Virus record (IMG/VR): IMGVR_UViG_3300043104_000334 | Reading direction: 5' to 3' (one strand) | Length of the DNA stretch: 64,000 nt | Origin: a virus | Taxonomy: Duplodnaviria; Caudoviricetes | Shown: positions 11,704 to 44,700 of the stretch, piece by piece | How the letters are laid out: each line of letters opens with the position of its first letter | Position numbering within the stretch: position 1 is the first letter of the stretch | Position numbers and translations under genes: made by a program | The notes under the pieces: model-generated | Database searches by the model: none | What the model saw: the letters and a program-made list of their open reading frames with translations, nothing else | What the model was told of the DNA's origin: nothing

Positions 11704-11712
11704 CACGCTGAA

Positions 11713-21455: not shown

Positions 21456-21468
21456 CAATTATATATGT
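21456..21468 (-). promoter_or_regulatory. Conserved promoter-like motif ACATATATAATTG (copy 2)
   Basis: Exact copy, 17 nt upstream of ATG 21438. Confidence 0.75.
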
Positions 21469-21487
21469 TATTAACATCTTCTTATAT

Positions 21488-22980: not shown

Positions 22981-22994
22981 TAATCTTTCCTCCA

Positions 22995-23834
22995 TTATTC
23001 AACCAATGTTATTCCATCATTGGTTACCTCAATCAAGTATGACCATAAGTTATCACGTATAGTATCCTCAATTGATATGCTTAATATTCTGTTCTTATCA
23101 CACTGTATATAGGCGTATGCGTTGTATGTTTGACTGTAAGAGTTATACACTTCAATATATAACGCACCACCAAATGCAGTATCCACTGTTGTATCACAGA
23201 GAAGCTGAAAGTTATCCTCAACAGTAGGGTCACGATATGGAGTCATTTCAAAATATGATTCATAATCCGTTAACCCATTGCCAACTTCAACCTCAGCATC
23301 GAGTGTAATTCCGGATGGAGTGCAACCAAGATAATAGTCAAAGTTATATGCACTCAGGGCATCCTTTCTGAGTTCCTGAACTGTCATAGATTCTGGGTCA
23401 ACTTCTGTCACAGTTACCCGTGCTCCAGAAACATCACAAATAAGTGCACCCTCATCAAACCCGTAGGACATCAACCGCAGATTATCAGTACTCTGCAAGA
23501 TAAATCCATTTGAGAACTCATACTTGTCTACGATATCAATATCCTCAACATTTGTAGAAGTTACATCTTCACTTCCCGTTACATAAGATGTACCATCTTT
23601 GTTTATCGTAACTTTATTATTGAACTTAAGCTCCCTGTCCTGTTCATATGACCCAGCATCATCAGTAGATGTAACGTCATCGGACTCTGTAGAATTGGAA
23701 GCTTGAGTCTCCGTTGTGGTCTCAGTATTTGTAACTTCATTACTGGAAGAGGATTTACCTCTTCCAATAACGAATATTGCAATACCAATTATTACAACCA
23801 CCAGAATAGCGACTATAATAATTTTCTTTTTCAT
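22995..23834 (-). CDS. Membrane-anchored acidic surface protein
   Basis: MKKKIIIVAILVVVIIGIAIFVIG then S/T-rich linker. Confidence 0.75.
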   Translation of the reverse strand: MKKKIIIVAILVVVIIGIAIFVIGRGKSSSSNEVTNTETTTETQASNSTESDDVTSTDDAGSYEQDRELKFNNKVTINKDGTSYVTGSEDVTSTNVEDIDIVDKYEFSNGFILQSTDNLRLMSYGFDEGALICDVSGARVTVTEVDPESMTVQELRKDALSAYNFDYYLGCTPSGITLDAEVEVGNGLTDYESYFEMTPYRDPTVEDNFQLLCDTTVDTAFGGALYIEVYNSYSQTYNAYAYIQCDKNRILSISIEDTIRDNLWSYLIEVTNDGITLVE

Positions 23835-25750: not shown

Positions 25751-26863
25751 TTAATTTTGTTTACGTATCATATCACGGTACGCTTCATATCTTCCACTCC
25801 ACTGTTGCTGCAATTGTGCAGTTTCAGTAGTGTCAAGAACAACATTTGCAGAACTCCTTAAGTTGAACGCAATAGGATATCCAACCTGCAAATTGTTCTC
25901 AACAATGTTTGCAATATTGTTTATTGATATCCTAGGGAACGTCTTACCCTCAACACTGATAGGATAACACTTAACTTTTAGGAATGTTCCATACATGCCC
26001 TGATTCTCTTCATAACCCTCTACAAAAGAATGCATGGCATGTTCTTCCCAAGCACCAAGCCGAATAGCATACTGATATTGGGAATTCTCAATAACTAGCC
26101 CATCTGTTAAATAACCATAGGCTCTGTTGATATAGGACATATACCAAATATATTTCTTAAGTTCCTCAAAGTTATTCACCCAAACAAACTTAGGTGACTT
26201 AAACCCGAGACTCTCAAGAACTTTATACTGGTCCTCAACTTCATCTCCATTCTCAACAAACATATTAAATGCTAAGAATGACAGATAGTCAACAGCAGAC
26301 CTAGCTAACGCCGACCTTACAGACGCACGCTGGTCATTATTACCGGTTATCATTTTGAATGCTTCCCACTTATCATTCGGAATAGACATCTCACCGGTTA
26401 TAGCTGTTCGTGCCTTGATAGGAATCTTCTGCGGAAATAGTTTATAAACGTTTTTAATGTCAAGATTAGTACCAGACCGCCCTCTAGTCTCAACATTTAC
26501 AATATTCCCATTGAAGTAGGACACTCTAGTGTTCCAGCCATCAATTTTGAAGGATAGTCGAGAACGCTCATTCAAACCTCTAAATACTTCATTGAACTCT
26601 TCTTCATTGTTAATGGAGTAAATAGACTCTGCCATGTAACCCATTGTAGGATTACAGATTAACCGTGACAGATTGTATTTCTTTAATAACTCTTCTGGAC
26701 ACTCATCAAATGACCAAGGCTGCTTCGAGTGAATATCATCTGGATACTCAAACTTGAAATGTCTCTCAAGCTTATCATACTCAATATCTGACAGTATTGG
26801 TTCTCCCATTAGATAGGTCCATCTCGCGATAATATATCGCTCATACGTATTGTCAATTACCAT
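25751..26863 (-). CDS. NAD-dependent DNA ligase, N-terminal half (Ia, adenylation and OB domains)
   Basis: Domain Ia YLMGEPILSDIEYDKL; motif I FKIDG; ETRGRSG; motif III TGE; motif IV TDGLVI; OB RISINNIANIVENNLQVG; stops before the Zn finger. Confidence 0.88.
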   Translation of the reverse strand: MVIDNTYERYIIARWTYLMGEPILSDIEYDKLERHFKFEYPDDIHSKQPWSFDECPEELLKKYNLSRLICNPTMGYMAESIYSINNEEEFNEVFRGLNERSRLSFKIDGWNTRVSYFNGNIVNVETRGRSGTNLDIKNVYKLFPQKIPIKARTAITGEMSIPNDKWEAFKMITGNNDQRASVRSALARSAVDYLSFLAFNMFVENGDEVEDQYKVLESLGFKSPKFVWVNNFEELKKYIWYMSYINRAYGYLTDGLVIENSQYQYAIRLGAWEEHAMHSFVEGYEENQGMYGTFLKVKCYPISVEGKTFPRISINNIANIVENNLQVGYPIAFNLRSSANVVLDTTETAQLQQQWSGRYEAYRDMIRKQN

Positions 26864-27380: not shown

Positions 27381-27392
27381 CAGTTATATATG
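27381..27392 (-). promoter_or_regulatory. Variant promoter-like motif CATATATAACTG
   Basis: One mismatch within the 12-mer core; 17 nt upstream of ATG 27363, the same spacing as copy 2. Confidence 0.65.
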
Positions 27393-27417
27393 AAACATAA
27401 ACTAATTTACGTTCATT

Positions 27418-28413
27418 TTATTGAAAAAGCTCGTCTACTCCATAGGTAACACCATCAAGGTATAATGCTAGGTGTAAGTGCGGTCCCGTACATCTTGAAC
27501 CAGTACCACCTGACAATGCAATCGTTTGATACTGTTTAACTTCCTGTCCCTCTTTCACCTTAATCTCAGACAGATGACAAACAAGATATTTTACATTATC
27601 TCCACACTCAACCGTTACAAAATATCCAATAGTATCAGACCATCCACAGGATGATACTGTCCCGTTGAATAGTGCACCCACCTTTGTTCCAACTGCAGCT
27701 CTATAATCAGTACCTGCATGGAATCTAACTTCATTATGATTAAGAGGGTCAACTCTATAACCATATGTTGACGTTACATATTTATCATTTGGAAGAATCC
27801 ATTGAATATTCTTAACATCACCAAGATCATAAGCATCCATTGCTTCAACATATAAAGCTTTTGCATCTTCTAGCTGCTGTTCAACTGACGACAAATCACT
27901 CTCGATAGATTTATAAGAGTAATTCAATTTATAGTCATTAACAACAGAAAGCAGAGAATTCATATTTGATACATTGGATTTGTAAGAACCATCCAATTGC
28001 AATAAGGTATTAATATCAGCCGTAAGAACGTCGGAACTAATCTCACTTGCTATAGCATCATTCTTTGTTTTATAAACAGAGATACTGTCAAGTACATCGT
28101 TTAATTCTTCCTCTCTCTTAGCAATGTACTCTTCCATTATTGCATTATATTGTTCATTCATTGTCTGCTGAGCCTGCATTGATTGCAAGTCATTTTCAAT
28201 GGAATTGATTTCATCTTCAATATCTGATGTTACAGGACCACCTAATGTTAATCCATAGACATTAAGCAAGTCTTCTGTATTATCCGCATAAACCTGCATA
28301 GGTTGGGATGGTAGAATAGAAACTACCATCCCAATTACTATACTAGCCCTGTAAAGCTTCCTGCAGGCTGCGGAGCACATATGTGATTTCAGTATAGTCA
28401 CTACCGTCCTCAT
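27418..28413 (-). CDS. Secreted M23 metallopeptidase with coiled coil (peptidoglycan hydrolase)
   Basis: HAGTD (HxxxD) and GPHLH motifs; N-terminal signal; start MRTVV at 28413 with GAGGAGG RBS. Confidence 0.9.
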   Translation of the reverse strand: MRTVVTILKSHMCSAACRKLYRASIVIGMVVSILPSQPMQVYADNTEDLLNVYGLTLGGPVTSDIEDEINSIENDLQSMQAQQTMNEQYNAIMEEYIAKREEELNDVLDSISVYKTKNDAIASEISSDVLTADINTLLQLDGSYKSNVSNMNSLLSVVNDYKLNYSYKSIESDLSSVEQQLEDAKALYVEAMDAYDLGDVKNIQWILPNDKYVTSTYGYRVDPLNHNEVRFHAGTDYRAAVGTKVGALFNGTVSSCGWSDTIGYFVTVECGDNVKYLVCHLSEIKVKEGQEVKQYQTIALSGGTGSRCTGPHLHLALYLDGVTYGVDELFQ

Positions 28414-28669
28414 CTGTGTCCTCCTCACGTGTCATTGTATATCCGTCCACTTCCTCAGGCACCAACATAGCACCTTTTCGATTGTATCTCTGAAGCATAA
28501 GCATAGGCTCATTTGTATATACGTTGTAATATATCAATATGAGCGAATCGTCACCGGCCTCAAGTTCATCCCCAAAGATTTGAACGACATGTTTTTCCAT
28601 GTTAGATTTAAACACATAGTCACTGTTCATAATGTCGTCCCAATTCATTTTTAATAACTTATTCTGCAT
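28343..28669 (-). CDS. Hypothetical protein directly after beta'
   Basis: 108 aa, GGAGG RBS. Confidence 0.65.
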   Translation of the reverse strand: MQNKLLKMNWDDIMNSDYVFKSNMEKHVVQIFGDELEAGDDSLILIYYNVYTNEPMLMLQRYNRKGAMLVPEEVDGYTMTREEDTDEDGSDYTEITYVLRSLQEALQG

Positions 28670-28679: not shown

Positions 28680-31600
28680 CTAAGATTCGACGTCGGAGCC
28701 TATGCCTATCCTTAATCCAAATGCGGCTCTTGTAATCGGATTTGACATTGAGTCATTAGGGTTCATCAAGATTGCCCTAGGCACATATGTATCCATATTT
28801 TCCATAAGGACACTCTCAAAGAAATCATTTTTATACTTTGGAAGAGCTTTCAAACCAAGTAACGTACGCATACTAAGCTGCTGCCCATTCACATCATTAC
28901 AAGCTTCAGGCCAAGTCAGGACAGAGCCAGCTTTATAATATGTCTTCTCACCAGTATGCAACGACTTGTAATCATAAACATTATTAGCATCAGCCCAAAG
29001 ATAGCATACAGACATTGAAGCTACGATTGTTTCAAAGTGCTTAAAGTTTACATCCTGCGTCATGAAAGTATCATATAGCTTTAATGCCAAATAGGATGCC
29101 GCTTTATCAAATCCCCTGTACCGTAACACTTCTTTCATGTTGAGATTACCCTGAATCTTCTGGAAAGAATCACCTTCGTATACATGGTCTTTTAATTTTG
29201 TCTGTGCATGAACGATAATCTTTTTGACAGCAAGTGAACGCATTCTTGATTTCACAATTCTGTCCTCAGGGTTATCAGGGATGATAAAGATTCTCTTGGT
29301 ACCATTACCAAGGTACTGCTCCCTTATTTTTCCATCCACCGGACTTATCATGTCGTACGTAAGAACTCCACGTTTACTCTTCCGTTTAGAAAAGTCATGA
29401 AGCTCAAAGTAATCTTCAATAAGCTGGAATGAAGATGTAAGGTTTGCATCAGTAACGACACCACCCTTTTGGAAGTTCTTCATTGTAAGCTGTGTACCCG
29501 GTTCACCAATAGCCTGTGCCGCAATAAAACCAACGGGTCTGCCGAGTTGTGGCTCATCTGTTCCAGCCGCAATATCCCTGCCATAGCACTTCTTGCAGAC
29601 AGGGCACTTGCAGTAAACTGGAGAACGCATCTCAACAATACCATCACCAGTCTCAACAAATTCATGTGTCTTAGGATTGATATATCCCCACGACTTATCA
29701 ATATGCTGGTAAGCCGCATTGATATTAGGGATGAATACAGACCTACTGTCTTGGCTGGTTCGATCAATACACCAACGACCAACGATAATCTTACTGAGAT
29801 ATTCTCTTGCAGCAAGCAACTGAGTTTTATACTCTGATGAATTCCTGAAAGCATCAACAACCTGCTTTGATGCGTTAGGCACACGAACGCCATACCTTGA
29901 AATCTGTGAATCATCAAGGAACGGTACAATGTCCTCAAGACTGAACTGCATACCCTCAGTTGTTTCACAATCTTCACTGAACACACTCATGATAGCGCCG
30001 GCATGTTCAAGCTTACGTGACATGTATCCCGGGTCAGCAGTAGCAAGTACCTTATCAGCAATACCCTTACGTGAACCATAAGCGGTAATGAATCCCTCGA
30101 GTCCTGTAAGATGACCTGAATAGCATCCGGCAATAATACTATTGAACGCTGTTGTATCATTCTTTTGTACACGACCCTTAAGACCAAATATCTGCATGAT
30201 ATTATTCTTGTCACCCTTACCACCGGACTTCATCATAGCGATATATCCATTATCATCTCCAAGGTTATTGACAAGATAATCTATAACTTCATCACGCAGT
30301 TCGTTCCACCGTTTATTGAAGTAGTTAGAGTATTCAGACTCAATCTCAATTCCAATGTTGACATACTCTTCACGCTCAAGCACATCTTTATTGAAATCAT
30401 CAATAAGTTGCTTTACGTGCTCCTTAACAGTGCTACTAACAATCGTTGAAATATTAGGCGGCCAAATCTTGGCAACTCTGAACCCAAGTTTTACAAGTCT
30501 GTTAATAGCATTTAAGAAGAAAGTCTTATTATTGCTATAAGCATTCTCCAAGATACTCGTAATCTGCTTCGCCTTGATTCCTTTACCCTTAAGGACCGTA
30601 GTAAGGTCCTGCGTATTGAAACCACAATAGATAGCATACTCCAATGCCGCTATTCCTGCTGTCTGCGTTCCAAACGGTGTCTCAACATTGTCATAGATAT
30701 TTATCTTCTGCTTACATACAGCATCATAGATATTTTTACCATGACCATTGTTCTGTGGAAGCCCCATCGATTTCGCGATATTATTCACATCAGCTTGTGA
30801 GAGATTCCTTGATTTTGTATTAGCCGTTGCTGTACTACACATCCATAGACCATAAATGATTTCATGCCGCATAACGATGGTGATTTCACCATTCTTTGGA
30901 TACCGGTAGTTGTTCGTAAAGGACATACGTTCACGTATCTCTTTATTTGCTTCAGCCGTCTGTGCCATATTAAAATGCATCTGGTCACCGTCGAAGTCAG
31001 CATTAAATGGCATAACGACAAGTGGGCTAAGCACAATCGCGTCACCATCAACCGGCTTAATCTTAAATGCTTCTATGCCTAGATAGAACAATGTAGGTTG
31101 TCTACCAGTAGGTCCAAACCTCGGTTCATATTCAAGCCATCTCTTAAGCAAGTCTTTATAAACCAAACCATCTACATCAGTTTTAGTAGAAGTAGATAAT
31201 CTTGCCAGATTCTTCTTTGTTACTTTCTTCGACAGGTCTGGGGCTTCATTACGGAGCCATTGTATAACACTTGGCTCTGCAATCTTATAGAGCATACTCC
31301 ATGGTATTCCTATTGTATCAATAGGCATCTCTGGGTCACAGGTAATTACTGTACGTCCCGAATAATCAATACGCACGCCCTGCATTCTACCACGCATGAG
31401 TCCCTCTTTACCAGTTATTGTATCTGAGATGGATTTATAATCCTTTAATCTTTGTTGCTGAATGACTTGGTCATCTCCAATAAAGATATTCCGGATATAC
31501 TGTACAACCTCTCTGTACTTATTTAACACAGCATAACAGGTTGCGTTTTGCTGCTGTTCAAGGATATCACGCAGTTCAGAGTTAGCATTTACGAGCTTGT

Positions 31601-32489
31601 TGTACTGCGATGTGATGACATCAACACGACCATCAATCGTAGGTCTATAACCCTCAGGCAGTACGAATATGTAACTAAGAATCTGACTTTTAAGTGCTTC
31701 CTTACCATCTCCATCAATCATAGAACTGAGCAAGCTAAGGATTGGAAATTGCTGCATGTTTGTTATATCATAGTTCTCAGTGTTGTCCAACATCTTAGCG
31801 TATACATCATCAATCCTATCTTCTGGCAAATCACCGCTTTCAAGGTCAATGAAATAGGTTCCAAATAACCAACCGTTTTCAATAGATACCCTACCAGAAA
31901 TAATATCTTCAGGGTCTACCGTAACGATAGGTCCAAGATTCAAAGTGCCTGCTTCATAGGCTGCTTTTTCGTCTTTCGATAAAACAGGTACAACATATGT
32001 GCCAATAAGCTTGTTACACAAGGAATCCCAAACATCTACCTCATCCAAAAGTTTCACAAGCAACTCCGCTCCAAATACATACCGCTCCCGGTCAAACATA
32101 GATGTACCAATATCTGCATTGGATACCATAGCTCCTACCTCATTATCATAAACAACATTTCCGTTTATGATTCCGGATATCATGTCTGAGCTTAATCCAA
32201 GTACAGTTCTCCATACCGGTGCTCCCCTACCTGCTAAGAAAGGATTAAGGACTCTGCATGTGAGGTCAATATACCCGACCCTTGTATATTTATCCTCGTA
32301 TATCTTATCATTGCAGTTAGGGTCATCAGAATGGTCTGCCTTTCCGAAGATTGAGGATGACACAACGTTGTGCTCATAATTATACGCTGTGTCAAGCCGC
32401 ACCATAGGAGCCGACGTAATTGACTGTCGTTCACTAGGGGCCATTCGCTTCTTATCATCTTTGTTTATTGGTCTAACAGAAATACTCAT
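28680..32489 (-). CDS. rpoC: DNA-directed RNA polymerase beta' subunit, divergent
   Basis: FNADFDGDQM catalytic loop; GKEGLMRGRMQGVRIDYSGRTVI; RQPTLF; bridge helix GSRKGIADKVLATADPGYMSRKL; C-terminal Zn site CKCPVCKKCYG; trigger loop IGEPGTQLTM. Confidence 0.95.
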   Translation of the reverse strand: MSISVRPINKDDKKRMAPSERQSITSAPMVRLDTAYNYEHNVVSSSIFGKADHSDDPNCNDKIYEDKYTRVGYIDLTCRVLNPFLAGRGAPVWRTVLGLSSDMISGIINGNVVYDNEVGAMVSNADIGTSMFDRERYVFGAELLVKLLDEVDVWDSLCNKLIGTYVVPVLSKDEKAAYEAGTLNLGPIVTVDPEDIISGRVSIENGWLFGTYFIDLESGDLPEDRIDDVYAKMLDNTENYDITNMQQFPILSLLSSMIDGDGKEALKSQILSYIFVLPEGYRPTIDGRVDVITSQYNKLVNANSELRDILEQQQNATCYAVLNKYREVVQYIRNIFIGDDQVIQQQRLKDYKSISDTITGKEGLMRGRMQGVRIDYSGRTVITCDPEMPIDTIGIPWSMLYKIAEPSVIQWLRNEAPDLSKKVTKKNLARLSTSTKTDVDGLVYKDLLKRWLEYEPRFGPTGRQPTLFYLGIEAFKIKPVDGDAIVLSPLVVMPFNADFDGDQMHFNMAQTAEANKEIRERMSFTNNYRYPKNGEITIVMRHEIIYGLWMCSTATANTKSRNLSQADVNNIAKSMGLPQNNGHGKNIYDAVCKQKINIYDNVETPFGTQTAGIAALEYAIYCGFNTQDLTTVLKGKGIKAKQITSILENAYSNNKTFFLNAINRLVKLGFRVAKIWPPNISTIVSSTVKEHVKQLIDDFNKDVLEREEYVNIGIEIESEYSNYFNKRWNELRDEVIDYLVNNLGDDNGYIAMMKSGGKGDKNNIMQIFGLKGRVQKNDTTAFNSIIAGCYSGHLTGLEGFITAYGSRKGIADKVLATADPGYMSRKLEHAGAIMSVFSEDCETTEGMQFSLEDIVPFLDDSQISRYGVRVPNASKQVVDAFRNSSEYKTQLLAAREYLSKIIVGRWCIDRTSQDSRSVFIPNINAAYQHIDKSWGYINPKTHEFVETGDGIVEMRSPVYCKCPVCKKCYGRDIAAGTDEPQLGRPVGFIAAQAIGEPGTQLTMKNFQKGGVVTDANLTSSFQLIEDYFELHDFSKRKSKRGVLTYDMISPVDGKIREQYLGNGTKRIFIIPDNPEDRIVKSRMRSLAVKKIIVHAQTKLKDHVYEGDSFQKIQGNLNMKEVLRYRGFDKAASYLALKLYDTFMTQDVNFKHFETIVASMSVCYLWADANNVYDYKSLHTGEKTYYKAGSVLTWPEACNDVNGQQLSMRTLLGLKALPKYKNDFFESVLMENMDTYVPRAILMNPNDSMSNPITRAAFGLRIGIGSDVES

Positions 32490-32492
32490 TGT

Positions 32493-33338
32493 TTATACCA
32501 ATCCCTTCCCGTAATCATGTAAAATCATTTCGAGTGCATGCTCATTTATCTCAGTCTTGTACACAAGTCTTAAGCCGTCAAGTCCTGAAACCGGAACTGC
32601 ACAAGTAAAGAACTTTGATAAATCATACACTGTTCTACATGGCATTATGTTGTCATACCCTTCATCAAACAATGCCTGCGTATCTGCATAATCCCAGTAC
32701 CCAGTACCTTTCTTGATGAACATGAATGTCGTGGCTACACCTGCACCCTCTCGTTTTAAATCGCAAATCTTAACGTGTGGCAACAACATCTCTGGATAAC
32801 TCGCTGGCTCAACATAAGAGTTCTGTGTATACCAAACAGTATCCGTTCCAAGATAGGGAACCCTATCAGAATCCGGTGGTCCCTCATAATCACACATAAG
32901 ACTACCGATTTCTTCTTTTGGCAACTTGAGAGCATTTGCGTGCCTTGTGCTAGCACGCATTGATGGCGAACGACCATGTCCCTCATCGAATTCCTTATTG
33001 TTCACAACCTCTTCATCAACACCGTAGAAGCAACCTTTTTCAGGGTTGATTCCACCATTCTCCACAGGAATGATATTACTCATAAGCATACCAAGTTCAA
33101 TGAGTGACATCCCATAGATATCATTCTGTCTGAACAATGAATGCTGATGCACATCGTCCCATCCATGATAGAACCCTATCACCCTCCAGTGTGGAATATT
33201 GTAGTCAAGCAAATCAGTTGAGAATCTGTTATAAACGATCATCAACTCATCTTTACTCAGCTGCTTGCTAAACTGTACAATACCATTTGATACCGTGCAG
33301 CCGGCAAAGCATTCCCCAACTAAAGATATTTCATTCAT
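32493..33338 (-). CDS. rpoA: Probable RNA polymerase alpha subunit (NTD only), highly divergent
   Basis: Colinear matches to alpha-NTD: NRFSTDLLDYNIPHWRVIGF ~ NSLRRILLSSLPG.AV; HSLF..DIYGMSLIEL ~ HEFSTIPGV.EDV.EI; LLPHVKICDL ~ ILNPDLHIATL; IKKGTGY ~ V.RGRGY; IMPCRTVY ~ IPIDSIY; DGLRLVYKTE ~ DKLTLEVWTD. Lies between beta and beta'; start MNEIS at 33338 (ATGA overlap). Confidence 0.7.
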   Translation of the reverse strand: MNEISLVGECFAGCTVSNGIVQFSKQLSKDELMIVYNRFSTDLLDYNIPHWRVIGFYHGWDDVHQHSLFRQNDIYGMSLIELGMLMSNIIPVENGGINPEKGCFYGVDEEVVNNKEFDEGHGRSPSMRASTRHANALKLPKEEIGSLMCDYEGPPDSDRVPYLGTDTVWYTQNSYVEPASYPEMLLPHVKICDLKREGAGVATTFMFIKKGTGYWDYADTQALFDEGYDNIMPCRTVYDLSKFFTCAVPVSGLDGLRLVYKTEINEHALEMILHDYGKGLV

Positions 33339-34018
33339 GAAATTCCTCCCGTAATAATGTACCCAATTGCAACCGCAGCAATAGCTACAGCCCAAGCAGC
33401 ATAGGTACAAGATTTATTCTTTGTACGAAGTGTCATAAATCTAATGTTTCTCTTCGTGATTGGAAATAAGACTGGACATCCCTCTACAGTAAGCATATCA
33501 GCAAACAGATGTGAGCAATACCCAACACACAACCCAAGCACACTATACTTCCATAAAGGGAAGTCTGATACACCAATTGCAAAGTAAAGCAATACTGGTA
33601 CTAATAATGTGTGCATTAAACCCCTGTGTCTTGTTGCCCACTGGAATGTTTTGCTATTATAAATAAACTTCTTTGCAACGGCAATTATAATAAATCCAAT
33701 AGCAATAAGCATAAGCTTATCTGCTTCAATACCATAGTTCTTGAATCCAAGCATTGTAACTATTGCAAGTATTCCTGCAATGAGTACACCGGCTAAGATA
33801 AGTAAATTCAATGTCTTTGTCGTAAGGTTTGTAATCACCTTACGCTTTCTACCAATCTTAGTCATATCGTGGTCAATATCAGGAAGCATACATCCAACTG
33901 CCGAAGCAGGCAGGATAAGCAACCCATAAGGGTCACCATATCCTTTTGACACGATACACGCACCTGCTATTCCAAATCCTATTCCAACTACTTTATGTTG
34001 TACACCTGTCATAGCCAT
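33335..34018 (-). CDS. YdjM-like membrane-bound metal-dependent hydrolase
   Basis: MTGVQH, LPDIDH, HRGLMHT, SHLFADMLT..G motifs; TM segments. Confidence 0.85.
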   Translation of the reverse strand: MAMTGVQHKVVGIGFGIAGACIVSKGYGDPYGLLILPASAVGCMLPDIDHDMTKIGRKRKVITNLTTKTLNLLILAGVLIAGILAIVTMLGFKNYGIEADKLMLIAIGFIIIAVAKKFIYNSKTFQWATRHRGLMHTLLVPVLLYFAIGVSDFPLWKYSVLGLCVGYCSHLFADMLTVEGCPVLFPITKRNIRFMTLRTKNKSCTYAAWAVAIAAVAIGYIITGGIS

Positions 34019-34079
34019 ACCTTTCTAGAACTACAACGTTCCACGTTATTTTGCATGAGACAGATAGTACCTCATACAA

Positions 34080-37000
34080 TTATTTCTGAAAACTTCCAAG
34101 GATTAGATTTGTTGCATTTTCAAACTCGTCATCTTCTTGACTTGCAACTGTGTCCTCGACAGCTTCAGAAGTATTACTCTTCACAGAGTTCTGCTTTTTG
34201 TTCGTATTCTTCTTGTACTGAACACTTGCCTGCTGAATAACACTAGGCTTCCAGTGCGCAAGCTGAGCACCATTATCCTTGTCAAGTGGAATGAACTCAC
34301 CATCATTAGGTTCACACATTACACCAAGTGCAAGGAAAGAATACAGAAACTGCGTAACTGCACGCCGCTGTCCGGGTGAGTCAATATGGTACTGCTTCCT
34401 GAGTTCGCCCGGGAAATATGTATCAATGTTGAAGTTATCTCTGGCAATGGCGTTATCACATCTTTCGTTTGTCAATTCATGTATATATGCAGATGCGCCA
34501 TAAGCACATAGCGCGTCAATCTCCATTGTACCAAATCTCTGTCCACCACCATTTGATGAACCGTGTGTAGGCGCATCTGTCATCTCACCATAAGGTTCCC
34601 AAATGTTCTGTCCGCCTCTTGCATGAATCTTCTTATGAGACTCCTGTATAAGCTTGAACACATGCAGATAAGCAACCACGATTTCTGTCTCAGTCATGTT
34701 TCCATCGTTATCCGGTAACATAACTTTTGTTGTGCCACGCTCATTGAAACATCCTGCATAAATACGAATGTCGTTGATAACCTCAACTAGATGTTGCTTG
34801 AAAGACTCAACGTGCTTTATGTGACTTTCATTAAGCAAATCACCATGTCTCAAGAATACAGCATTTAGGTCACCGGTAGAATTCATAAGGTCAACAGTAA
34901 GGGACATCAACATAGCAATCTCTTCCTCTGAAATACAGTTGTACGCATCTGATGAAAGTTTAAACTTGCACACATGAGAAAACAGCCCTGTATGAGATTC
35001 CTTTATCTGGCCAACATTCATACGTGAACCTACACCAAGTGGATTAAGACAAATATCCAATGGAAAACCATTTGCAAGACGTGGCATGTTAGATGTCTTT
35101 TCTTTCTTACTAAGAACACCTTTGTTACCATGTCGGTTAGACATCTTGTCACCACCACTAAACGGGTCGATAGAGACCGTATTCAGTGTCAAGCCATAAT
35201 TACCTGCTCTGTGTTCTGACTTGATAGAATCATATTTTTCATAGAATCCATAAGCCTTAGAAAGCGGAATATCTTTCTTCTTACTCTCCATGAATCGCCT
35301 ATCAGAGTAAGCAACACTAATTGAGCTACTAAGTTCCGGAGACATCCATCTACCGTTGTTTGATTTGCTCATACGGTAAGACCGAGTAGAGTTTGGGTTA
35401 CTTGTAAAGTCTTCCTTGTTGATTCTATAGGATGCAAGTCTGTTACACATTGATTCTGAAATATGCGCACCATCCTCATAATTGTAACCATCACAGATGT
35501 AACCAACAAGCGCATTACATCCAAGAGTTAAGATACCATTCTCAGAGATAAAATTTGAAGATACGAGCATCTGACCCTTATGGAATCTCTGCCCTACTTC
35601 AACGAGCACTTTCATCTTTGTTACAGAATAACCGCTATCAAAGTATTCATCAAACTGATAAATGGTACCATCAGAAATATCCTGTGAATCATACCGAACC
35701 GCAAGATGATACTTCTCTTCACGCCAGTTATATTCACATGTAACAACTGTACCGCTATCTTTTGCAATAATTCCAAACTTGTCGTTAAGCCATGCAAACT
35801 GCTCATAAGCACTCGTGATAACATCTGGTTCTTCTGCAAATACCAATCCCTTAGCCTGCTTCTCCTGTGCAACAGCAAAGATAGCACGCGCCGCATCATT
35901 ACTACTCATATACGGAATCGTGGATGACGCATAACTAAGCGACTGACTAGCATTGACATTGACGAAATCAACTTGACTGATAGGTCTGTATGCAAACGTA
36001 GATTTCTCGACAGAGTTTCTGGTGGGTACACGACACTGAACAATCTTAGTGTTATCCTTTACAACGTAATCACTGCCAAACTCAAGCGAGCAGATATCCG
36101 CAATTACATACCGCTCTTCATCCCGGCTAGTAAGAGGAATCTTCTTGTCAGTCTTAATAACTGACTGATTGCCAAGATGCTGTACTCTGTAATACAACGT
36201 AGACATCTTACCATCTGTAGAGATAACAGAGTCACAGCAGGAATTGTAAACTGTACCCATCTTCTGTGACTGCGGAATTTCATAAGCATCAATCTTCGCA
36301 TAAGAACCGATTGCAATTTCACGCTGAGAATCCGCAATGGAATGCTTGTTCGCCGTATAGACATTCACTTTTGTGCAAGCAGACTGATATGCAATAGGAT
36401 TATGGAGATTATCACCCTGCAACCGAACAATACATTTTGCTTCATCCCTAAGGTACTTCCAGAAGTTCTTTGTAAACGGATAGAATTCATTGTCGATTAA
36501 ATCGCGGTCAAGGAAATTCTGTCTCTTACCTTTATAGATTTCCTTGAACTTCCTATTCATTTGTTTGAATCCCTCACGGACTGCATAGCAGAATGCACGA
36601 TGGTACTGTTCCTCAATAGGAATTAAAACCTTTCTGAAACCTGCATCTGCATTTACAATTCGATCAATCCATTTGCCCTCAAACAACTTCACACAGAATG
36701 ATTGAAGTGCCATAAAGTCATACGTAGTGTAAGCACCATTAGCCGGTACAAAATCCTTGTCACAATTAAGGTAATACCAGTCACCATGTGGCTTACCAAT
36801 GTCTTTACCCCGGAACTGTCTGTTAGAGATAATCTCTTCGTAGAAGTTAAGAACTCTTACCTTTCCGCCGGACCTCTTGTCGCTCACCTTAATGGATTCC
36901 TTTCCATAAGCAACAATGACATCAAGCATATCGCTTGTAAGCTGTGTGCCTGATTCATAGATAATTGGTACCGGAAGTTTATCGTAGAACTTGGATGTAT

Positions 37001-38117
37001 ACATTCCATGCTCTTCCGGGAAATACTTTCGCAGCGACTTGGAAATTCTAAGACCTACAGGCGCAAACGGAATAAAGATATCTTCCGCCAGATAGAAACC
37101 CTCGATGTTTGGCACATACTTGATATAGAGTTTATAGACTCCATCGGCATTAAACAACCGAATCATATTACTGTCAACTACTTCACCAGCATGCGCAAGG
37201 ATTCTACCGTTTACAAGTTCCGACTCAACATCTCTTGCAAGTACCTCTCCAACAGCACGGTCAAGTGACAACAACTCATTCAAATCATCCCGAATAGCCG
37301 TATTGTCATAAGAGTCATCACCCTCACCATTCTCTTTGATACGCGTAAGAGTAAGCCTGGGAACGAGTTGTTTCTTGTAGTCGATACCATTTACGCTAGC
37401 AGAGTTAGCAACAATTCCACCAAGTCTCTGCTCTTTCTCTTCTTCATCCTTAAACATGTTAACAATGAAGAAGTTAGCAAACTCTTTAAAGAGTTCTTCT
37501 GGCTCATAGCCCTCATCCTTTGCCATTGCCACGATAAGGTCAAGCAACGTGTACTTAGTCTTAGACGACTTTCCACTCCGGTCAGACATCCGAATTTTTA
37601 ATGCGCTTGCATTATCATCAATCCAGATAGACCGAGTACCATTCTTAATCTTAAGACAAGCCGCCTTTGCAGTATTGTCATTTGCTTCGAACGATACCGT
37701 AGGCTCCTGCTCAAGCATATGTATGAATGCATACTGCTGGTTATCATACTCGATAATACCGTTCTCATAGACATGAGGAAGATTCATAACAGTGACGTCC
37801 TGAGCCTTATCAGGATTGAATCCCGGAATGTCAAACCTTACTGTAACATGATGTGTAAGGTCATTGTACTTTCCCGGGTCTACCTGTTTCACCTTGATTC
37901 TTTCAGCACTCGTTTTGAGCATATCAGGATTGCACTTAATAGCATTGATGAGAGCCGGCATGAACACGTTGAGTACATCCTCAACGGCCCGCTTATCCGT
38001 ATACTTCTTAAATGACTCGTAGACGGGACTTGGCTTCATGTCCGGTATAAGACTAGGTCTTGCAAGTTCATTCTGGTACGCGTATAATATATTTTTATTC
38101 TTGTCATAATCCAGCAT
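34080..38117 (-). CDS. rpoB: DNA-directed RNA polymerase beta subunit, divergent
   Basis: GYNYEDG, GDKMSNRHGNKGV, LNPLGVGSRMNVGQIKE, KIHAR, GGQRFGTMEIDAL..YGA. Confidence 0.95.
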   Translation of the reverse strand: MLDYDKNKNILYAYQNELARPSLIPDMKPSPVYESFKKYTDKRAVEDVLNVFMPALINAIKCNPDMLKTSAERIKVKQVDPGKYNDLTHHVTVRFDIPGFNPDKAQDVTVMNLPHVYENGIIEYDNQQYAFIHMLEQEPTVSFEANDNTAKAACLKIKNGTRSIWIDDNASALKIRMSDRSGKSSKTKYTLLDLIVAMAKDEGYEPEELFKEFANFFIVNMFKDEEEKEQRLGGIVANSASVNGIDYKKQLVPRLTLTRIKENGEGDDSYDNTAIRDDLNELLSLDRAVGEVLARDVESELVNGRILAHAGEVVDSNMIRLFNADGVYKLYIKYVPNIEGFYLAEDIFIPFAPVGLRISKSLRKYFPEEHGMYTSKFYDKLPVPIIYESGTQLTSDMLDVIVAYGKESIKVSDKRSGGKVRVLNFYEEIISNRQFRGKDIGKPHGDWYYLNCDKDFVPANGAYTTYDFMALQSFCVKLFEGKWIDRIVNADAGFRKVLIPIEEQYHRAFCYAVREGFKQMNRKFKEIYKGKRQNFLDRDLIDNEFYPFTKNFWKYLRDEAKCIVRLQGDNLHNPIAYQSACTKVNVYTANKHSIADSQREIAIGSYAKIDAYEIPQSQKMGTVYNSCCDSVISTDGKMSTLYYRVQHLGNQSVIKTDKKIPLTSRDEERYVIADICSLEFGSDYVVKDNTKIVQCRVPTRNSVEKSTFAYRPISQVDFVNVNASQSLSYASSTIPYMSSNDAARAIFAVAQEKQAKGLVFAEEPDVITSAYEQFAWLNDKFGIIAKDSGTVVTCEYNWREEKYHLAVRYDSQDISDGTIYQFDEYFDSGYSVTKMKVLVEVGQRFHKGQMLVSSNFISENGILTLGCNALVGYICDGYNYEDGAHISESMCNRLASYRINKEDFTSNPNSTRSYRMSKSNNGRWMSPELSSSISVAYSDRRFMESKKKDIPLSKAYGFYEKYDSIKSEHRAGNYGLTLNTVSIDPFSGGDKMSNRHGNKGVLSKKEKTSNMPRLANGFPLDICLNPLGVGSRMNVGQIKESHTGLFSHVCKFKLSSDAYNCISEEEIAMLMSLTVDLMNSTGDLNAVFLRHGDLLNESHIKHVESFKQHLVEVINDIRIYAGCFNERGTTKVMLPDNDGNMTETEIVVAYLHVFKLIQESHKKIHARGGQNIWEPYGEMTDAPTHGSSNGGGQRFGTMEIDALCAYGASAYIHELTNERCDNAIARDNFNIDTYFPGELRKQYHIDSPGQRRAVTQFLYSFLALGVMCEPNDGEFIPLDKDNGAQLAHWKPSVIQQASVQYKKNTNKKQNSVKSNTSEAVEDTVASQEDDEFENATNLILGSFQK

Positions 38118-38129
38118 AACACTGCTCCT

Positions 38130-38552
38130 TTATACTAAGTTGAATTTGCGAAGTAAGTCTTCGTCAAGCTCCTCCATTTCATCAGCATCATACTCACCCA
38201 TGTTTGTCACTTCTGCAGGCAGTGAAACCGGAACGTTATCACCCTCACAAAGAGGTATAGCAGTGATATCACCAAGGTCATCAACAACCAAGATGATTTT
38301 CTGACCTGCACACACTACCGGCAAAGCAACCTCCCAGTCATCTCCACACTCTGAGATAATGGTCGAGAAATCTTTCTCCGTATTCATGAAGTTACTGAAA
38401 TCTTCAATACCAGAAATCTCAATAACCTTGAGTCCGCCGTAAGCCGTAAAGGCAACCTGTACAAAGTCACCACTAGCCTTTGCGAAGATGCTTTCATCGT
38501 CCTCACCCATGTTCGCAAACCCTACTACCTGTGTCCATTCATTTCTTAGCAT
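38130..38552 (-). CDS. Acidic hypothetical protein, first gene of the RNAP operon
   Basis: 140 aa, AGGAGG RBS. Confidence 0.7.
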   Translation of the reverse strand: MLRNEWTQVVGFANMGEDDESIFAKASGDFVQVAFTAYGGLKVIEISGIEDFSNFMNTEKDFSTIISECGDDWEVALPVVCAGQKIILVVDDLGDITAIPLCEGDNVPVSLPAEVTNMGEYDADEMEELDEDLLRKFNLV

Positions 38553-38610: not shown

Positions 38611-38623
38611 CAATTATATATGT
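38611..38623 (-). promoter_or_regulatory. Conserved promoter-like motif ACATATATAATTG (copy 3, RNAP operon)
   Basis: Exact copy, 58 nt upstream of ATG 38552. Confidence 0.75.
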
Positions 38624-38663
38624 GCTCAGTCAAGTTTCTTCTTCAGAAAATTAACTGAGCACA
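38621..38663. repeat. Inverted repeat abutting the RNAP-operon promoter
   Basis: TGTGCTCAGT (38621-30) / ACTGAGCACA (38654-63) with further imperfect inner pairing. Confidence 0.7.
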
Positions 38664-38666
38664 CTA

Positions 38667-38699
38667 TATTTTACAGGAGGAAAACCCTCCTGTAAAATA
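38667..38699 (-). terminator. 14-bp perfect hairpin after the giant adhesin gene
   Basis: TATTTTACAGGAGG-N5-CCTCCTGTAAAATA. Confidence 0.7.
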
Positions 38700-38708: not shown

Positions 38709-41700
38709 TTAGTGTGTACCAGTTGTTGTCAAATCAGTCGTACTCGTATTGTATGCGTCATATACAACAAGAGGTGCCCATTTTGAGTCAATTTTGGTTA
38801 CTACTGTTCCGGTGGAAGAATATACATCAACTCCATTCTCACCTACTGTAATTGTATTGTTGTTACAATTATCTGGCTTATTGTCATTGCTGTAAAGCGT
38901 AATCTTATTATCTTTTCCACCATTCATCAGTCTCGCATCATATTCCAATTCATAGACACTACCCTGAACTGTAATACCAGCAAATGCAACAATAACCGAA
39001 TTCGGATGATCATTCTTAAGTTTTTGATTAGCTGTTAAGACTTCAGTCTTGGAAGTTGCTGCCCCTGCATATGTAGCAATTGTTGAGCTAGGTAAATTCA
39101 ATGTGAAATACCAACGCTGAGATTGCTTCATGAAATTAAGAGCTGTTACACCATTTCCTGTAGACCCACTCATTGCAGTACCGCCGAGCTGATTTGTACC
39201 AGTCCCTTCGGATGCATCTCCATAAAGATAAGATGAACCAATGTAGTCCAAATCATTACAATCAAGAACGATCTTTGATGCAGTACCGATATAATCATAT
39301 TTCTTATATGCAGCTTTATTTATGCCCCAATAAGATAATACAGTATCAGTATAACTCTCTTCAGTCGATGTTGTATTACGACGAGCCGCTTCAGTAGTAA
39401 GGTCAATAGAAAGACCTGTCTCAGTAAGCTTCTTCACATTAGCAGCACTGGTGTCACTATAATATAAAGTGTATGAACCAGAGCTACCAGCATAGAGGTC
39501 AATCGCATAAAACTTACCCTCACTGTAATCATATAGATAATAATGAGGAGTAATTGTCATAACGGCCGTTCTCGTATCTTCACCACTATTCTCATCCGCA
39601 ACTGATGACGGACCATCATCTCCACCAAATGAACCACCCTCAAGTGTATTGATACCATAATAATTACCAATAGTCTCAATATCAAAATAGGATGCATATC
39701 CAATCTTCAACTGTTCTGTTGAATAGGTAGAGTTACTCTGCAGAGAAGCTGCTGTCAATGGTAATGTACCCCACTCGCCTGCCTTACCTAATCCAGTTAT
39801 ACTACCATACCGATAATTGGTTACAGACAATGTAGCGTGTGATTGTGTCTGGGCCGTATGTCCTCTACTTGATAACATAATATCTGCAGTCGTAGTAAGA
39901 ATCTTTACTGGGTAACTCGAATCGACATTATGAACAACATTAGGAATAGACCATGAAGTTAGTGCTTTCTTAAATAATTCTGAATATCTAAAATCACCAA
40001 CATCTTCAAGAGCAAGATTTCCAATACGCCCAACAACCTCAATTGTAGTTGAACAATAAGTTGTATTATCTGCTACAAGGTTATAATCTCTTGTAATGTT
40101 TCTATTCTGATATTGATCAAAGTCGATATTCGAGCCAGCATTAATAGCTATCGTAGCAAATGTTACTGTTGCCGTAGTTGTTTCTTCAGCTGATGTAACA
40201 ACTTGGAATGAGTAATCAAGACCGTACTTAAATTCCGAATCACTTGACAGTGCATTTTGTAGAGCATCTGTCGCTCCATGGAATACACCTGAAGCTGCGT
40301 TAGTTAAACTACCATCTGAAGCTTTAGAAACAGAACCAGTATTGTTCTCAAGTGTATTACATCTATACTCAGAAAGATTTATCCAAGTATTTGCAGGTAT
40401 GGTGACAGTATCACCATTGACCTTTGTACCAATAACCGGGAATGTAAACATAACATCACGTTCTGCAACCCATCTGCCAGTATTCATATTGTTAGTATAA
40501 CCCTTAGCATTTGAGTTGATTTTTCCGGTATTAGAGTCAGCACCATTATAAGTGCATCCAACACCTAGAGATGCTGTAGCTACGCCGGCAATAGAGTCAC
40601 CATACGCATCATAGAAGTCACCGAAATCAGTTATCCATAAATGGACTGTATTTCCTATGACAACGTAGTTATTTTTGTTTGCTTCAGCAACGCCCTGCGT
40701 ACTTACTCGCATATCCTCGCCAGTCTCATCCTCAGCAGGACCGTTTCCATCATAGTCTCCGTATCCATTTCCAATTAACTGAGAATACTGAGAAGATACT
40801 GGGTCATGAATAAGAACATCGTTAAGAACACCATTATCAGAATCTGGTGAAAGCTTTGCTACATACTCAGTTTTTCTATCAGCCGTAATCTTTGGAGCAC
40901 TTACCTGTTCACTATCAACACACTGCTGACACAATGATTGATTACTGAAATCAAGTGCAAGATTATAATAAACATTCACACCGATAGGTGAAGTGTAAAC
41001 ACCATTTTTCGCAGTCTGAATCATTGAAATGTTACTAATTACTAATGCAGTACAATAATTAATTGTTGAACCATCACTAGTGTTTGTGTAACCTGAAACA
41101 TTTCCTGCTCCATTGTTGCTGACATTGGATCCACTACTTATGAGACTACCATTCAAGTATCTATTTACAGTAAAGCTTCCAATATTCGGATATGCAAATG
41201 TTGTATAATAACCATTGAATGTTTGTGTCTGTGCCGTTCCCTCACTCTTCGACACAAAATTTGTTCGTCCCGGTACTGTACTTGTTATTGGTACTGTTCT
41301 ACTATAACACGTTGCTACTATTATGTTGCTATTCTGTGACCATTTTTCACCATTTGTTACATATCCAGATAAGGTAGCCTTTGATAAAGAATCAATAAAT
41401 GATTCTCCTCTAATGATACCGTCAGATGAATATTTTACAGATGGATTAGAAGATACATGTCCAGTATAACCAACGTATAATGTTTTTGCATCGTTAAGAT
41501 TACCAACGTCATCATACTTATCCCAAAATACATTAGTGTTTAGTGTATTCTGCAATTCTTCTGCAGTACCGTATTTATTTGCATGATTGCGGTAATAAGT
41601 CTGTCCGTTCTCAGTAAATCCAAAATTAAACAGATTTATACCACTGTCGATAGCATAAGACTCAGCAAGAATATTCTGAGAACCAACGTTCGCAACACTA

Positions 41701-44700
41701 ATAGACATTGCATCTGAAATAATGTTAGCAGTATAACCGTTTTCTACACTGTTAGCACATTCCCATGCATTTACAACATGAAGTGCCTCTGTTAACGCTT
41801 GGTCGTCTGTTAAAACGTCACCAATCTTACTCTGGTAGTTTGTGTTACCATGACTGCTGTCCGCGTTCCAATGTGCTGTCTGCTTACCATAACTCTTACT
41901 AATAGACACACTATCAATTGCTCCACTATTCGCAAGAGTTCCTACAGAGTTGTCTGCAACAACAGTCATACTGATAGTACAATTTCCTAACCAATAATGT
42001 TCAGCACCATTGTCTCCAGACACAGTTGTAGATGTCCATCCATCTCCACTCTTGTACTGCGGACTTTTGAATTTCGTAAACCAAACTCTACCATTCGAGC
42101 CATTATAATCACCATTGGCTTTCCACATATCAACAGAGATATTTGTGTTGGAAGATGCTTGGCCTACAGCGCTACTCGATATTAAACTCGTATTTACGCT
42201 AGCTATTTCAGCACGCTCAAGTGTATAAACCTTAGCACTTAACAACTCTCGATAAGCATATACATCAACAGTCTCAACAAGTGAAAATGTAAATGTTTTT
42301 GTAGCCGGGTGAATTATATTCTGCGTGGCATGTGTTACTGTACAACCGTATCCAGCTGTATATCCATCACACGTTAATGTATCAGCTGTATAAGTGTATC
42401 CACTATAGGTTTTTGTACCAATCTTTACTGAACAAGCAGTAAGTAAATATCTTTGCTTATTACTTGTTGATGTTGGAGCTGTAACAGACTTTGAAGCTAC
42501 GCTTCCATCCCCTGACGCAGTCACATCACCAGTTGAACAATTGAATGTCACCGTGTAGTTACATGTATGCCCAGATGCTCCCCATGTTGGGTCTACGCCA
42601 CCACTAGCAGTAATTGTAAGAACTGTACCGCAACCTGCACAAGCACTAGAACTCTTCTGTTCTCCATTACCAGCTGACCACTTAGCAGAAGCAGTAAATC
42701 CAGCCACAGAAGTCGAATATGTTACACCATCCTTCGTGCATGTATGTGTCTGACCTGTTGCCGAAGCCATTACACCACCGCGTGTCGATTGCGTACCTGT
42801 CGCCCCACATGTATCACATGACCATGTATTAGTCAGACCGTTAGCATCTGCCGTGCCACTCTTTTCAGTCACATTCTGCGATTTTGAACCAAGTGTGTGC
42901 CCCGGACAACTAAGCGTACATCTTGCATTACTATCCTTACTACTAGCCCAAATATCAGTGATAGTTACCTTGAACTTTATAGTACGCGTGATAGCAGCAT
43001 TCTTGTTTTGTGCATTCTGAGTATCACTCTTATTGTTCTTGTACAATGCGTCTGACGTTTTTAACTGTTGACCATAGGCATGTATACGCCCGCTAAGGTC
43101 AATAGAACAAACACGACCACCTGCAGCTACTGCAAGGTTTTCAGTACTAGGGATTCCCTCAGATACATTCCAATCAGAAGCTAGGCCATCGTATGTGTTG
43201 CTCTTTGTTCCAGCACAGTTAGCGACTATCTCTGCATAGGCTTCAATATCACTTGTTGTACTGAATGTCCAGTCAATATGGTCAACTACATCCGGTCCAA
43301 CCCAGTCATTATAACTGTGACCAACATTATTGGTGTCATTTTCCAAACACCAGTAAGCATCACTACAATCTTCTATATCTGTTGGTATTACACTCGTTGA
43401 ATTAATTGTCACCGTGAACGAAGCAGGTGCTGACATATGACCAGCCTTTTCAGTCTTACTAGTACTCTGAGCAAGCTCTGATATATCAATATAATACTGT
43501 TGTTTTAACAGCTTTTTCAGTTCCGTTCCAGTAACAGTAAATTTATACGTACTAGTAGCACCCTTACTTGATGATGCACTAAACGACACATACGTACCAA
43601 TTGCTTCACTGTGCTTTGTTACTTCATCATATGTAGAAGAAGTACTAGCTCCTCTTATGTACATTCCCTTTATCAGACCGCTTACTCTCGGAGTCGGGGA
43701 TTTATCACATATACTATATTTTGGTGTTGCTTGTACAACTACTGTATATGACGCACTAGTATTCACGGCTTCTAGAGTATCATTATCAGCACCCAAATAT
43801 AATGCAAATGTTGCATTTTGATACTCTCCTTCAGTCAAGACTGTCTCTTCTTCGTGAACACTACTGAGTACACTGAAAGTATAGGATGTCGGACGGTCAC
43901 CAGTACTAAAGCAGTTATGACTTATTTCATTACCTACATCGAAATACTTGTCATAGTACAATATCTTGTTGCCAGTAATTTTTGCAGCTGAAACTGAGAC
44001 ACGCTTATCCTCAGAATCAGTATGCTTTTTAATACTAACTGAGAACTTTACGGAGCTAGCAAGAACAGTAGCATTCTTATTACCTTTTACCTTCTGAATA
44101 AATGATATTGGGTTCTCCTGATTAATTAATTGTTTAATCGCTACTTCATTTGCAGTAAATTGTAATGTTGCTGTCTCACCATAACTTCCAGATGCACTAA
44201 ACTCAATTCCTGATATCCCATTTGTACTCTTAAACTTGTATGCAGTTATCATACTTTTTGCATACGTTGTGTTTTCAGAATCACATGTTCCTTTGTTATA
44301 CTTGTTTGTATTGATTGATATGGAGATATCGTAACTTCCACTTCCAGTTATATTGTCTTTTGTACTATCTGCTGCATCAAAATACATAGTAAACTTAGTT
44401 GACTGTGCAGTACCAGTATACAACTTTGTTTTCGTAAGATGGTTTGTACTTTTTATGGAATAACTAAAATCACCAGCACTCGTGGCTTTCCAGCAGTTAT
44501 GGTTTGTTTTGCTGGTTGCTGACCAGTAGGGATCTACAGAATCACCGTTTTTATCTGTTGGCGCATCAACAGCTGTTACACTGTCGGTACTCGTCACACT
44601 TACAGTAAACTTAAGGCTGTGTGATAATACAGTACAGTCAGCATCCTTGACTCCAAAACTCAATTTAATACCGTCGCCTTTATCACCAAGGTAACCAGCA

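Follow-up and report, generated by a model that had tools for sequence, protein, structure and literature searches.

A probable bacterial-type RNA polymerase core with a reduced, alpha-like subunit on a giant extrachromosomal element

The core RNA polymerase (RNAP) of bacterial cells is an alpha2-beta-beta'-omega assembly encoded by rpoA, rpoB, rpoC and rpoZ. The plastid-encoded polymerase (PEP; rpoA, rpoB, rpoC1/C2) is likewise a bacterial-type core with an alpha subunit, carried on a small non-chromosomal replicon and dependent on a specificity factor encoded elsewhere (its sigma is nuclear); PEP is a clear cyanobacterial orthologue, with a split beta' and an alpha that is recognised by Pfam. 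The multisubunit RNAPs known from prokaryotic mobile elements and viruses lack the alpha assembly platform and are split or fused in non-cellular ways. In the phiKZ/AR9 type, the enzyme is divided among 4-5 polypeptides, alpha and omega are both missing (PMC7824862, PMC13282480), and a phage-specific fifth subunit takes the place of sigma (PMC7824862, PMC13282480, PMC7598289). Here, we describe a locus in a 64,000-nucleotide (nt) stretch of DNA, the IMG/VR record IMGVR_UViG_3300043104_000334 (this whole stretch is called the window below), in which one minus-strand operon probably encodes a giant extrachromosomal element's own bacterial-type core RNAP, with alpha reduced to its N-terminal domain (NTD).

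The operon consists of seven tightly packed genes on the minus strand, from 38552 to 27418. At its centre lie, in order, genes for an unsplit beta homologue of 1345 amino acids (aa) (34080-38117), a YdjM-family membrane-bound metal-dependent hydrolase of 227 aa (33335-34018; PF04307, E 6.1e-25), an alpha-NTD-like protein of 281 aa (32493-33338) and an unsplit beta' homologue of 1269 aa (28680-32489). The gaps between the first six genes are, in order, 13, 61, -4, 3 and 10 nt; the end of the hydrolase gene overlaps the start of the alpha-like gene by 4 nt, and the 281-aa open reading frame (ORF) begins with ATG, with GGGAGG just 5'. Sigma70-type promoters and terminators show no enrichment within the operon. 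A preliminary description, made from the sequence, had given the order rpoB-hydrolase-rpoA-rpoC in a single operon; the ORF map agrees with that order and its coordinates, and the operon also takes in a 140-aa ORF, a 108-aa ORF and an M23 peptidase, to which we return below.

Both large subunits are recognisable by sequence as relatives of the bacterial proteins. Beta matches Pfam Rpb2_6 with 117.8 bits (cut-off 23.4) and Rpb2_7 with 31.7 bits, and beta' matches Rpb1 domains 2, 4 and 5 (Rpb1_2, Rpb1_4, Rpb1_5) above the Pfam gathering threshold, with domain 1 just below it. The two score higher on bacterial than on archaeal NCBIfam models, and fall far below the equivalog cut-offs that define the cellular proteins: beta' reaches 357 bits on the rpoC model TIGR02386 (cut-off 963.5), and beta 222 bits on the rpoB model TIGR02013 (cut-off 801). 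Each is about 25% identical to its counterpart in E. coli or B. subtilis, whereas the proteins of those two bacteria are 57-60% identical to each other. PHROG and tblastn matches to phage subunits of the phiKZ/AR9 type are weaker than those to full-length proteins of cellular type.

The features shared with the cellular core include the unsplit beta and beta', their domain order and catalytic motifs, the bridge helix, trigger loop, clamp coiled-coil and C-terminal zinc site, and the two-domain alpha-NTD fold discussed below. Alignment to the E. coli and B. subtilis proteins shows NADFDGD and the bridge helix in beta', together with a trigger loop that has no SI3 and the clamp coiled-coil region; the C-terminal (second) zinc site of beta' is intact as a four-cysteine set (C841/C960/C965/C968). 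Residues N496, A497, D498, D500, G501 and D502 and the four zinc cysteines are invariant in 26 beta' sequences of the family, and beta keeps the motifs GDKM..RHGNKG, KIHARG and GGQRFG.ME. The single ORFs, the alignments and the 26-member invariance uphold the earlier statement that beta and beta' are unsplit and have intact catalytic motifs. Because the catalytic aspartate triad and the zinc cysteines are invariant and the catalytic motifs are kept, the enzyme is, judged by sequence, very probably active.

What does the enzyme lack? The N-terminal zinc ribbon of beta' (CxC...CxxC) is absent, and the family consensus has no conserved cysteine in that region. In beta, the flap segment between GYNYED and GDKM appears to span about 120 aa, versus about 165 aa in B. 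subtilis (some 45 aa shorter), and seems to hold no counterpart of the flap-tip motif ..EE.LL.AIFG.., the docking site of sigma region 4. Together with the missing C-terminal domain (CTD) of alpha, these absences and the failure to find an omega set the element enzyme apart from the cellular core. The term "stripped-down", used in the preliminary description, therefore fits the regulatory modules (alpha CTD, zinc ribbon, flap-tip motif) and does not fit overall size: beta and beta' are full-sized with lineage-specific insertions, and in beta' some 80 aa are inserted after residue 150. The genetic setting differs as well, in that the alpha gene lies between rpoB and rpoC, whereas cellular rpoA sits in a ribosomal-protein operon, and in that the operon includes a YdjM hydrolase and an M23 peptidase and is carried on a non-chromosomal replicon.

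The 281-aa protein was identified through its predicted structure. An exhaustive search showed that its family comprises 72 clusters at 50% identity and that the members are 225-313 aa long, and an alignment of 64 family sequences served as input for AlphaFold2, which returned a model with a predicted local distance difference test score (pLDDT) of 95.5 and a predicted template-modelling score of 0.93. Foldseek searches of the PDB with this model match RNAP alpha chains only (at least 335 at E<=1e-3, the best at 3.9e-8 with probability 1.00). VIA-align places it on alpha structures with Z scores of 9.8-11.0 over 186-198 residues; the top match (Z 11.0, 194 residues) pairs model residues 9-281 with alpha residues 9-222, and with the E. 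coli alpha-NTD crystal structure 1bdf Z is 10.0 for 193 residues, model residues 9-281 being paired with chain residues 12-222. RpoA clusters of the ESM atlas match at template-modelling scores of 0.51-0.52. The protein is predicted to adopt the two-domain alpha-NTD fold, with a dimerisation domain containing two long helices and an inserted beta-rich domain, and it stops with the last NTD helix (residue 281), so that it has no linker and no CTD (PF03118). The alpha-NTD identity without a CTD, as originally proposed, thus holds at the level of the predicted fold, in the AlphaFold2, Foldseek, VIA and ESM atlas comparisons, and it did not extend to sequence profiles (see below).

Among the viral structures of BFVD, the Rpb3 homologues of giant viruses alone match the 281-aa model (Pithovirus Rpb3, E 1.3e-4), and no protein of a prokaryotic virus or phage does so. 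The Rpb3-like subunits of these nucleocytoplasmic large DNA viruses indicate that viruses can carry an assembly-platform subunit, but they are of the eukaryotic type, belong to viruses of eukaryotes, and match less well than bacterial alpha (E 1.3e-4 versus 4e-8). A separate observation concerns an ESM atlas cluster. Its 105 proteins, about 243 aa long and most often from Bacillota, carry PF01000 and PF01193 and no alpha CTD. CTD-less alphas with recognisable sequence therefore also exist, and these may belong to other elements.

The arrangement of the locus is conserved over great sequence distances. We compared six distinct relatives (L001, L004, L005, L089, L091 and L092), whose beta' identity ranges from 33 to 100%. 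All six keep the order small ORF, beta, YdjM, alpha-like gene, beta', ORF of about 115 aa, M23 peptidase, ORF of about 170 aa and ligase, followed by Hsp70 and a family-A DNA polymerase (PolA). None of the relatives examined lacks the YdjM gene between beta and the alpha-like gene, and every positional orthologue of the alpha-like gene matches the family hidden Markov model (E 2e-96 to 3e-14). The alpha-like gene is strictly co-inherited, as well as translationally coupled, with beta and beta', which speaks indirectly for a dimer of its product that would bind both subunits.

How might such an enzyme be assembled and directed to promoters? Beta and beta' are full-length single chains with the two double-psi barrels and all catalytic elements, and the 281-aa protein would be a highly diverged alpha reduced to the N-terminal assembly domain. 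By analogy with cellular RNAP, two copies of this protein would dimerise through long helices (residues 29-44 and 266-280), and the dimer would scaffold beta and beta' into an alpha2-beta-beta' core with no need for host alpha. The missing modules are the alpha CTD (the part concerned with UP elements and class I activators), the beta' N-terminal zinc ribbon and a recognisable beta flap-tip helix; because these are modules used by host regulators, the enzyme would be insulated from much host transcriptional control. Promoter specificity would come from a factor not found in this window, for which a host sigma and a small sigma-region-4 protein, such as lies beside the operon in two relatives, are candidates. 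PEP, whose sigma is likewise borrowed, is a functional parallel for such a core, although the element family, unlike PEP, has no identifiable cellular parent. With the phiKZ/AR9-type enzymes the locus would share beta/beta'-related two-barrel subunits on a giant non-chromosomal replicon and a presumed independence of host transcription; it differs from them in its single ORFs of 1345 and 1269 aa and in the presence of an alpha-fold protein.

The operon is preceded by a bipartite promoter-like motif, TGAA-N19-CATATAT(AAT), of which the window holds five copies versus 0.13 expected, all on the coding (minus) strand. One copy (38616-38645) lies 64 nt 5' of the first operon gene and another (27386-27415) directly after the M23 gene, where the following transcription unit starts; the others are at 11696-11725, 21461-21490 and 55499-55528. 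Each copy falls within, or at the edge of, an intergenic gap 5' of a gene start, and three contain one identical 13-mer, ACATATATAATTG. Among relatives whose beta' is about 37-40% identical, the motif is found at the same position before the operon (L091) or after the M23 gene (L004, L092). Given that relatives have the motif at these two places as well, the operon is a defined transcription unit under what appears to be an element-wide promoter. Written as TGAAnn-N17-CATATAT, the motif may resemble the forespore sigmaG/sigmaF promoters of Bacillus, a likeness that serves as a lead only. Perfect hairpins overlap the motif spacer at 38640-38690 and 11700-11740 on the minus strand (for example, GTGCTCAGT...ACTGAGCAC); they have no T-tract, and their possible roles are termination of the unit before them or an operator-like function.

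Which factor would read this promoter? Two branches of relatives have a sigma70 region 4 protein of 135-139 aa just 5' of the operon. In L089 and L090, a 139-156-aa protein of extracytoplasmic-function (ECF)-like or sigma70-region-4 type is found 5' of the operon, a possible element-encoded initiation factor. The promoter may be read by the host holoenzyme, by the element core carrying a host sigma, or by the element core with a factor of its own.

Several observations weigh against an element-encoded alpha2-beta-beta' core. The first set concerns alpha, whose assignment rests on the predicted structure. Identity of the 281-aa protein to cellular alphas is about 12-16%, and its sequence has no match in Pfam, PHROGs or NCBIfam; none of the 64 family members matches the alpha models of Pfam or NCBIfam (PF01000/PF01193, TIGR02027), the former pair being the profiles that the preliminary description had named for a check. 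A PDB-sequence profile search with the 281-aa protein returned nothing at E<=10, and hhalign of the 64-sequence profile with five cellular RpoA proteins gave a probability of 0.9% (E 0.058), with a sole aligned stretch (181-240 versus RpoA 117-172) that is colinear with the fold match. A second set concerns partners and initiation. No omega homologue was found in the window, in which small ORFs were not scanned exhaustively; Pfam finds no sigma factor among the 47 window ORFs of at least 120 aa, and tblastn with the sigma-region-4 proteins of the relatives has no match in the window. Moreover, the motif has a -35-like box at sigma70-family spacing, a poor fit to an enzyme without a flap tip, and the host holoenzyme may transcribe these operons instead. 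Finally, the typing of the element as phage or plasmid rests on a 64-kb window of a replicon of about 200 kb, and this type, like the alpha2-beta-beta' assembly, its 2:1:1 stoichiometry, its activity and the pairing of promoter with polymerase, is something that we infer; gene identities, predicted folds, conserved motifs, synteny, the size of the family and its absence from known collections are shown directly.

The family to which the locus belongs is large. Full-length relatives recovered with beta' fall into more than 120 clusters (at 90% identity); they are 32-77% identical, and nearly all come from metagenome assemblies. The family contigs, from well over 100 assemblies, are 150-335 kb long (the largest 334,719 bp); two well-sampled members have dozens of contigs above 50 kb and none above 1 Mb. 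The alpha-like family was not found in 185,579 GTDB species genomes, metagenome-assembled genomes included, nor in IMG/VR, cultured phages or the PLSDB plasmids, and the beta' search of IMG/VR found no relative. A beta' scan of GTDB met cellular rpoC only among its best 599 stretches, at 25-29% identity and in many phyla. The literature yielded no description of an element-borne alpha/beta/beta' set, and the databases no phage or plasmid with this combination; the jumbo-phage RNAPs in the reviews consulted are split and alpha-less (PMC7824862, PMC13282480), in keeping with the earlier suggestion that the system may be undescribed.

To place the family among known enzymes, a beta' tree was built with FastTree from 26 family members, 29 cellular proteins of at least eight phyla and the homologue of Rhizobium phage RHph_TM30. 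The family forms one clade (support 100), with all cells across a branch (support 99). None of the 29 bacteria sampled groups with it; its stem measures about 2.4 substitutions per site, and its members have diverged from one another at least as far as those bacteria have. As far as these sequences go, the tree shows no affinity to any phylum. RHph_TM30 (Kleczkowskaviridae; L008, MN988521.1) is a cultured 208-kb phage with an unsplit 1127-aa beta' homologue that contains NADFDGD (7407-10790), and in this respect resembles the element; its beta' is 24% identical and sits on its own long branch, and neither a beta (PF00562) nor an alpha-like gene is detectable in its genome.

Because the tree is unrooted, made by a quick method and joined by long branches, it fits an old lineage of independent standing as well as a capture that evolved fast. 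That a cell-derived core was captured and domesticated by a mobile element is consequently not shown, since the unrooted tree reveals no donor, direction of transfer or age. A bolder proposal, which we think unlikely as a whole, is that the alpha-NTD, beta and beta' form a deep independent RNAP lineage, sister to all sampled bacterial enzymes and not a recent capture, which survives only on widespread giant elements of endospore-forming Firmicutes and provides autonomous transcription from their own, possibly forespore-type promoters, insulated from host activators. If true, it would be the first case of a non-cellular, non-organellar replicon with a complete alpha2-beta-beta' core.

What kind of element carries the operon? 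The evidence on element versus chromosome covers the 64-kb window and 10-kb flanks of the relatives. The window is coded entirely on the minus strand, with a GC content of about 39% and a uniformly negative GC skew, and belongs to a giant, unbinned extrachromosomal element of about 200 kb with one-strand coding and mostly ORFans. It contains one tRNA (tRNA-Met, 56129-56203) and no rRNA, and the 47 ORFs scanned include no ribosomal-protein, translation-factor or metabolic gene. The replicon is an extrachromosomal element and not a cell, because its contigs do not exceed 335 kb, the window has no rRNA or ribosomal-protein genes, the alpha-like family was not found in GTDB, and a relative has ParB; the same facts speak against the reservation attached to the preliminary description, that the contig might prove to be a cellular chromosome. 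An FtsK/SpoIIIE-family ATPase of 1191 aa (655-4230, minus strand; PF01580, E 3e-15) is plausibly a Gram-positive conjugative coupling protein of the TcpA/Orf21 type. In L089 (324-4135) and L090, whose beta' is 33% identical, the genes directly 5' of the RNAP operon encode PurE (AIRC), cotJA, cotJB, a cotJC-type manganese catalase and a ParB_N protein. The cotJA/cotJB/cotJC genes and ParB_N of a relative hint that the host is an endospore-forming Firmicute and that the element has a partition system.

The alternative that survives best differs from the element-encoded core set out above in element type only. Under it, the window would derive from a jumbo phage with virion genes too diverged to recognise, and the RNAP would be a phage enzyme, of the non-virion or virion kind, that makes infection independent of host transcription as in phiKZ/AR9, in this case unsplit and with an alpha. 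A size of 200-335 kb, one-strand coding and the possession of PolA, ligase, peptide deformylase, Hsp70 and a tRNA are all typical of huge phages (PMC7162821). However, no PHROG virion family was met among the 16 proteins tested, whose PHROG matches are confined to the RNAP and the hydrolase, and the family was not found in IMG/VR or among cultured phages, as noted above. In addition, a ParB_N gene adjoins the operon in a relative, and the FtsK/SpoIIIE ATPase of the window is among the items counted as pointing to a Gram-positive conjugation apparatus. On balance, we regard a jumbo phage as possible but doubtful.

A quite different role can be imagined for the 281-aa protein, that of an alpha mimic aimed at the host enzyme. 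It would, for example, form dead heterodimers with host alpha or sequester host beta/beta', while the beta and beta' of the element would use host alpha. A predicted alpha-NTD fold without a CTD is the form expected of a dominant negative, and host alpha is a known target of phages, which act on it in other ways (PMC7824862). Yet the gene is translationally coupled between beta and beta' and has stayed with them without exception while the family diverged at least as far as the bacteria of the tree, and at such low identity to cellular alphas the interfaces of the protein probably changed in step with the equally diverged beta and beta' of the element and not with a host protein, all of which makes a mimic improbable. 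Least credible by far is a cellular origin, in which the contig would be part of the much reduced genome of a cell that lives as a symbiont or parasite of others and has this as its only RNAP, because an own core with alpha, PolA, ligase, Hsp70, peptide deformylase and tRNA-Met is offset by 64 kb without rRNA and with a single tRNA, by 47 scanned ORFs with no ribosomal protein, translation factor or metabolic gene, by contigs that never exceed 335 kb in well over 100 assemblies, by absence from the 185,579 species genomes (metagenome-assembled ones included), and by the cotJABC and ParB genes of relatives, which are typical accessory and partition genes.

If the operon does encode the element's own core, as we favour, its general kind is familiar, namely a bacterial-type multisubunit RNAP on a mobile replicon, and what is new is the subunit complement and the very deep branch. 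A complete core of cellular type could then persist outside chromosomes and organelles. The enzyme would also be a natural minimal core, with no alpha CTD, zinc ribbon or flap tip and no omega found, and so a test of which modules are needed for assembly and initiation. With more than 120 clusters, the family gives RNAP phylogeny a very long branch that is well sampled, which bears on whether the RNAPs of viruses and plasmids are escaped cellular genes or old lineages of their own, and it marks a large group of unclassified 150-335 kb elements missed by current virus and plasmid catalogues.

The remaining operon genes are conserved in position. The first (38130-38552) encodes a 140-aa protein with an acidic C-terminal tail; it has 12 homologues, with positional orthologues 5' of beta in L004, L001, L089, L091 and L092, and no match in Pfam, NCBIfam or the ESM atlas by features or structure. 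By analogy, its acidic tail may recall the delta subunit or sigma region 1.1. Directly 3' of beta' is the 108-aa ORF (28343-28669), identified by its conserved position, with positional orthologues of 115-122 aa in all relatives (tblastn E 3.6e-10 to L004). The AlphaFold2 model of its product is beta-rich (pLDDT 89.7), has no PDB match by Foldseek and is not omega-like. VIA places it nearest to the double-wing domain of E. coli YdcD, a borderline match (Z 8.1 over 98 residues), with an Rhs immunity protein second (Z 6.4). T4 MotA, too, binds DNA through a double-wing fold. The last gene before the next promoter motif (27418-28428) encodes the 336-aa M23 peptidase (PF01551, E 7.9e-22), which is syntenic in all relatives examined.

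Two published groups of large elements were also considered. The Inocle elements of oral Streptococcus are giant (245-395 kb), metagenomic and outside known plasmid and phage classes, and the paper that describes them refers to DNA polymerase III, gyrase and RpoS, whereas an RNA polymerase core is not mentioned in it (PMC12340149). Identity with Inocles was rejected, given their GC content of 24-32%, versus 39% here, and the lack of any mention of an RNAP (PMC12340149). A preprint on gut conjugative megaplasmids likewise does not mention an RNAP (PMC12934698).

Elsewhere in the window are genes for a peptide deformylase (6131-6598), PolA (13587-16880), an Hsp70 (21658-22995), an NAD-ligase-type adenylation domain (25751-26863) and a GNAT acetyltransferase (61875-62600). 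The Hsp70 is 30-35% identical to Bacillota DnaK, a comparison that is uninformative on the host phylum. Directly 5' of the RNAP operon lies an ORFan of 2455 aa (38709-46076, minus strand) with no Pfam match, and giant ORFs of 2128-2685 aa occupy the equivalent position in relatives.

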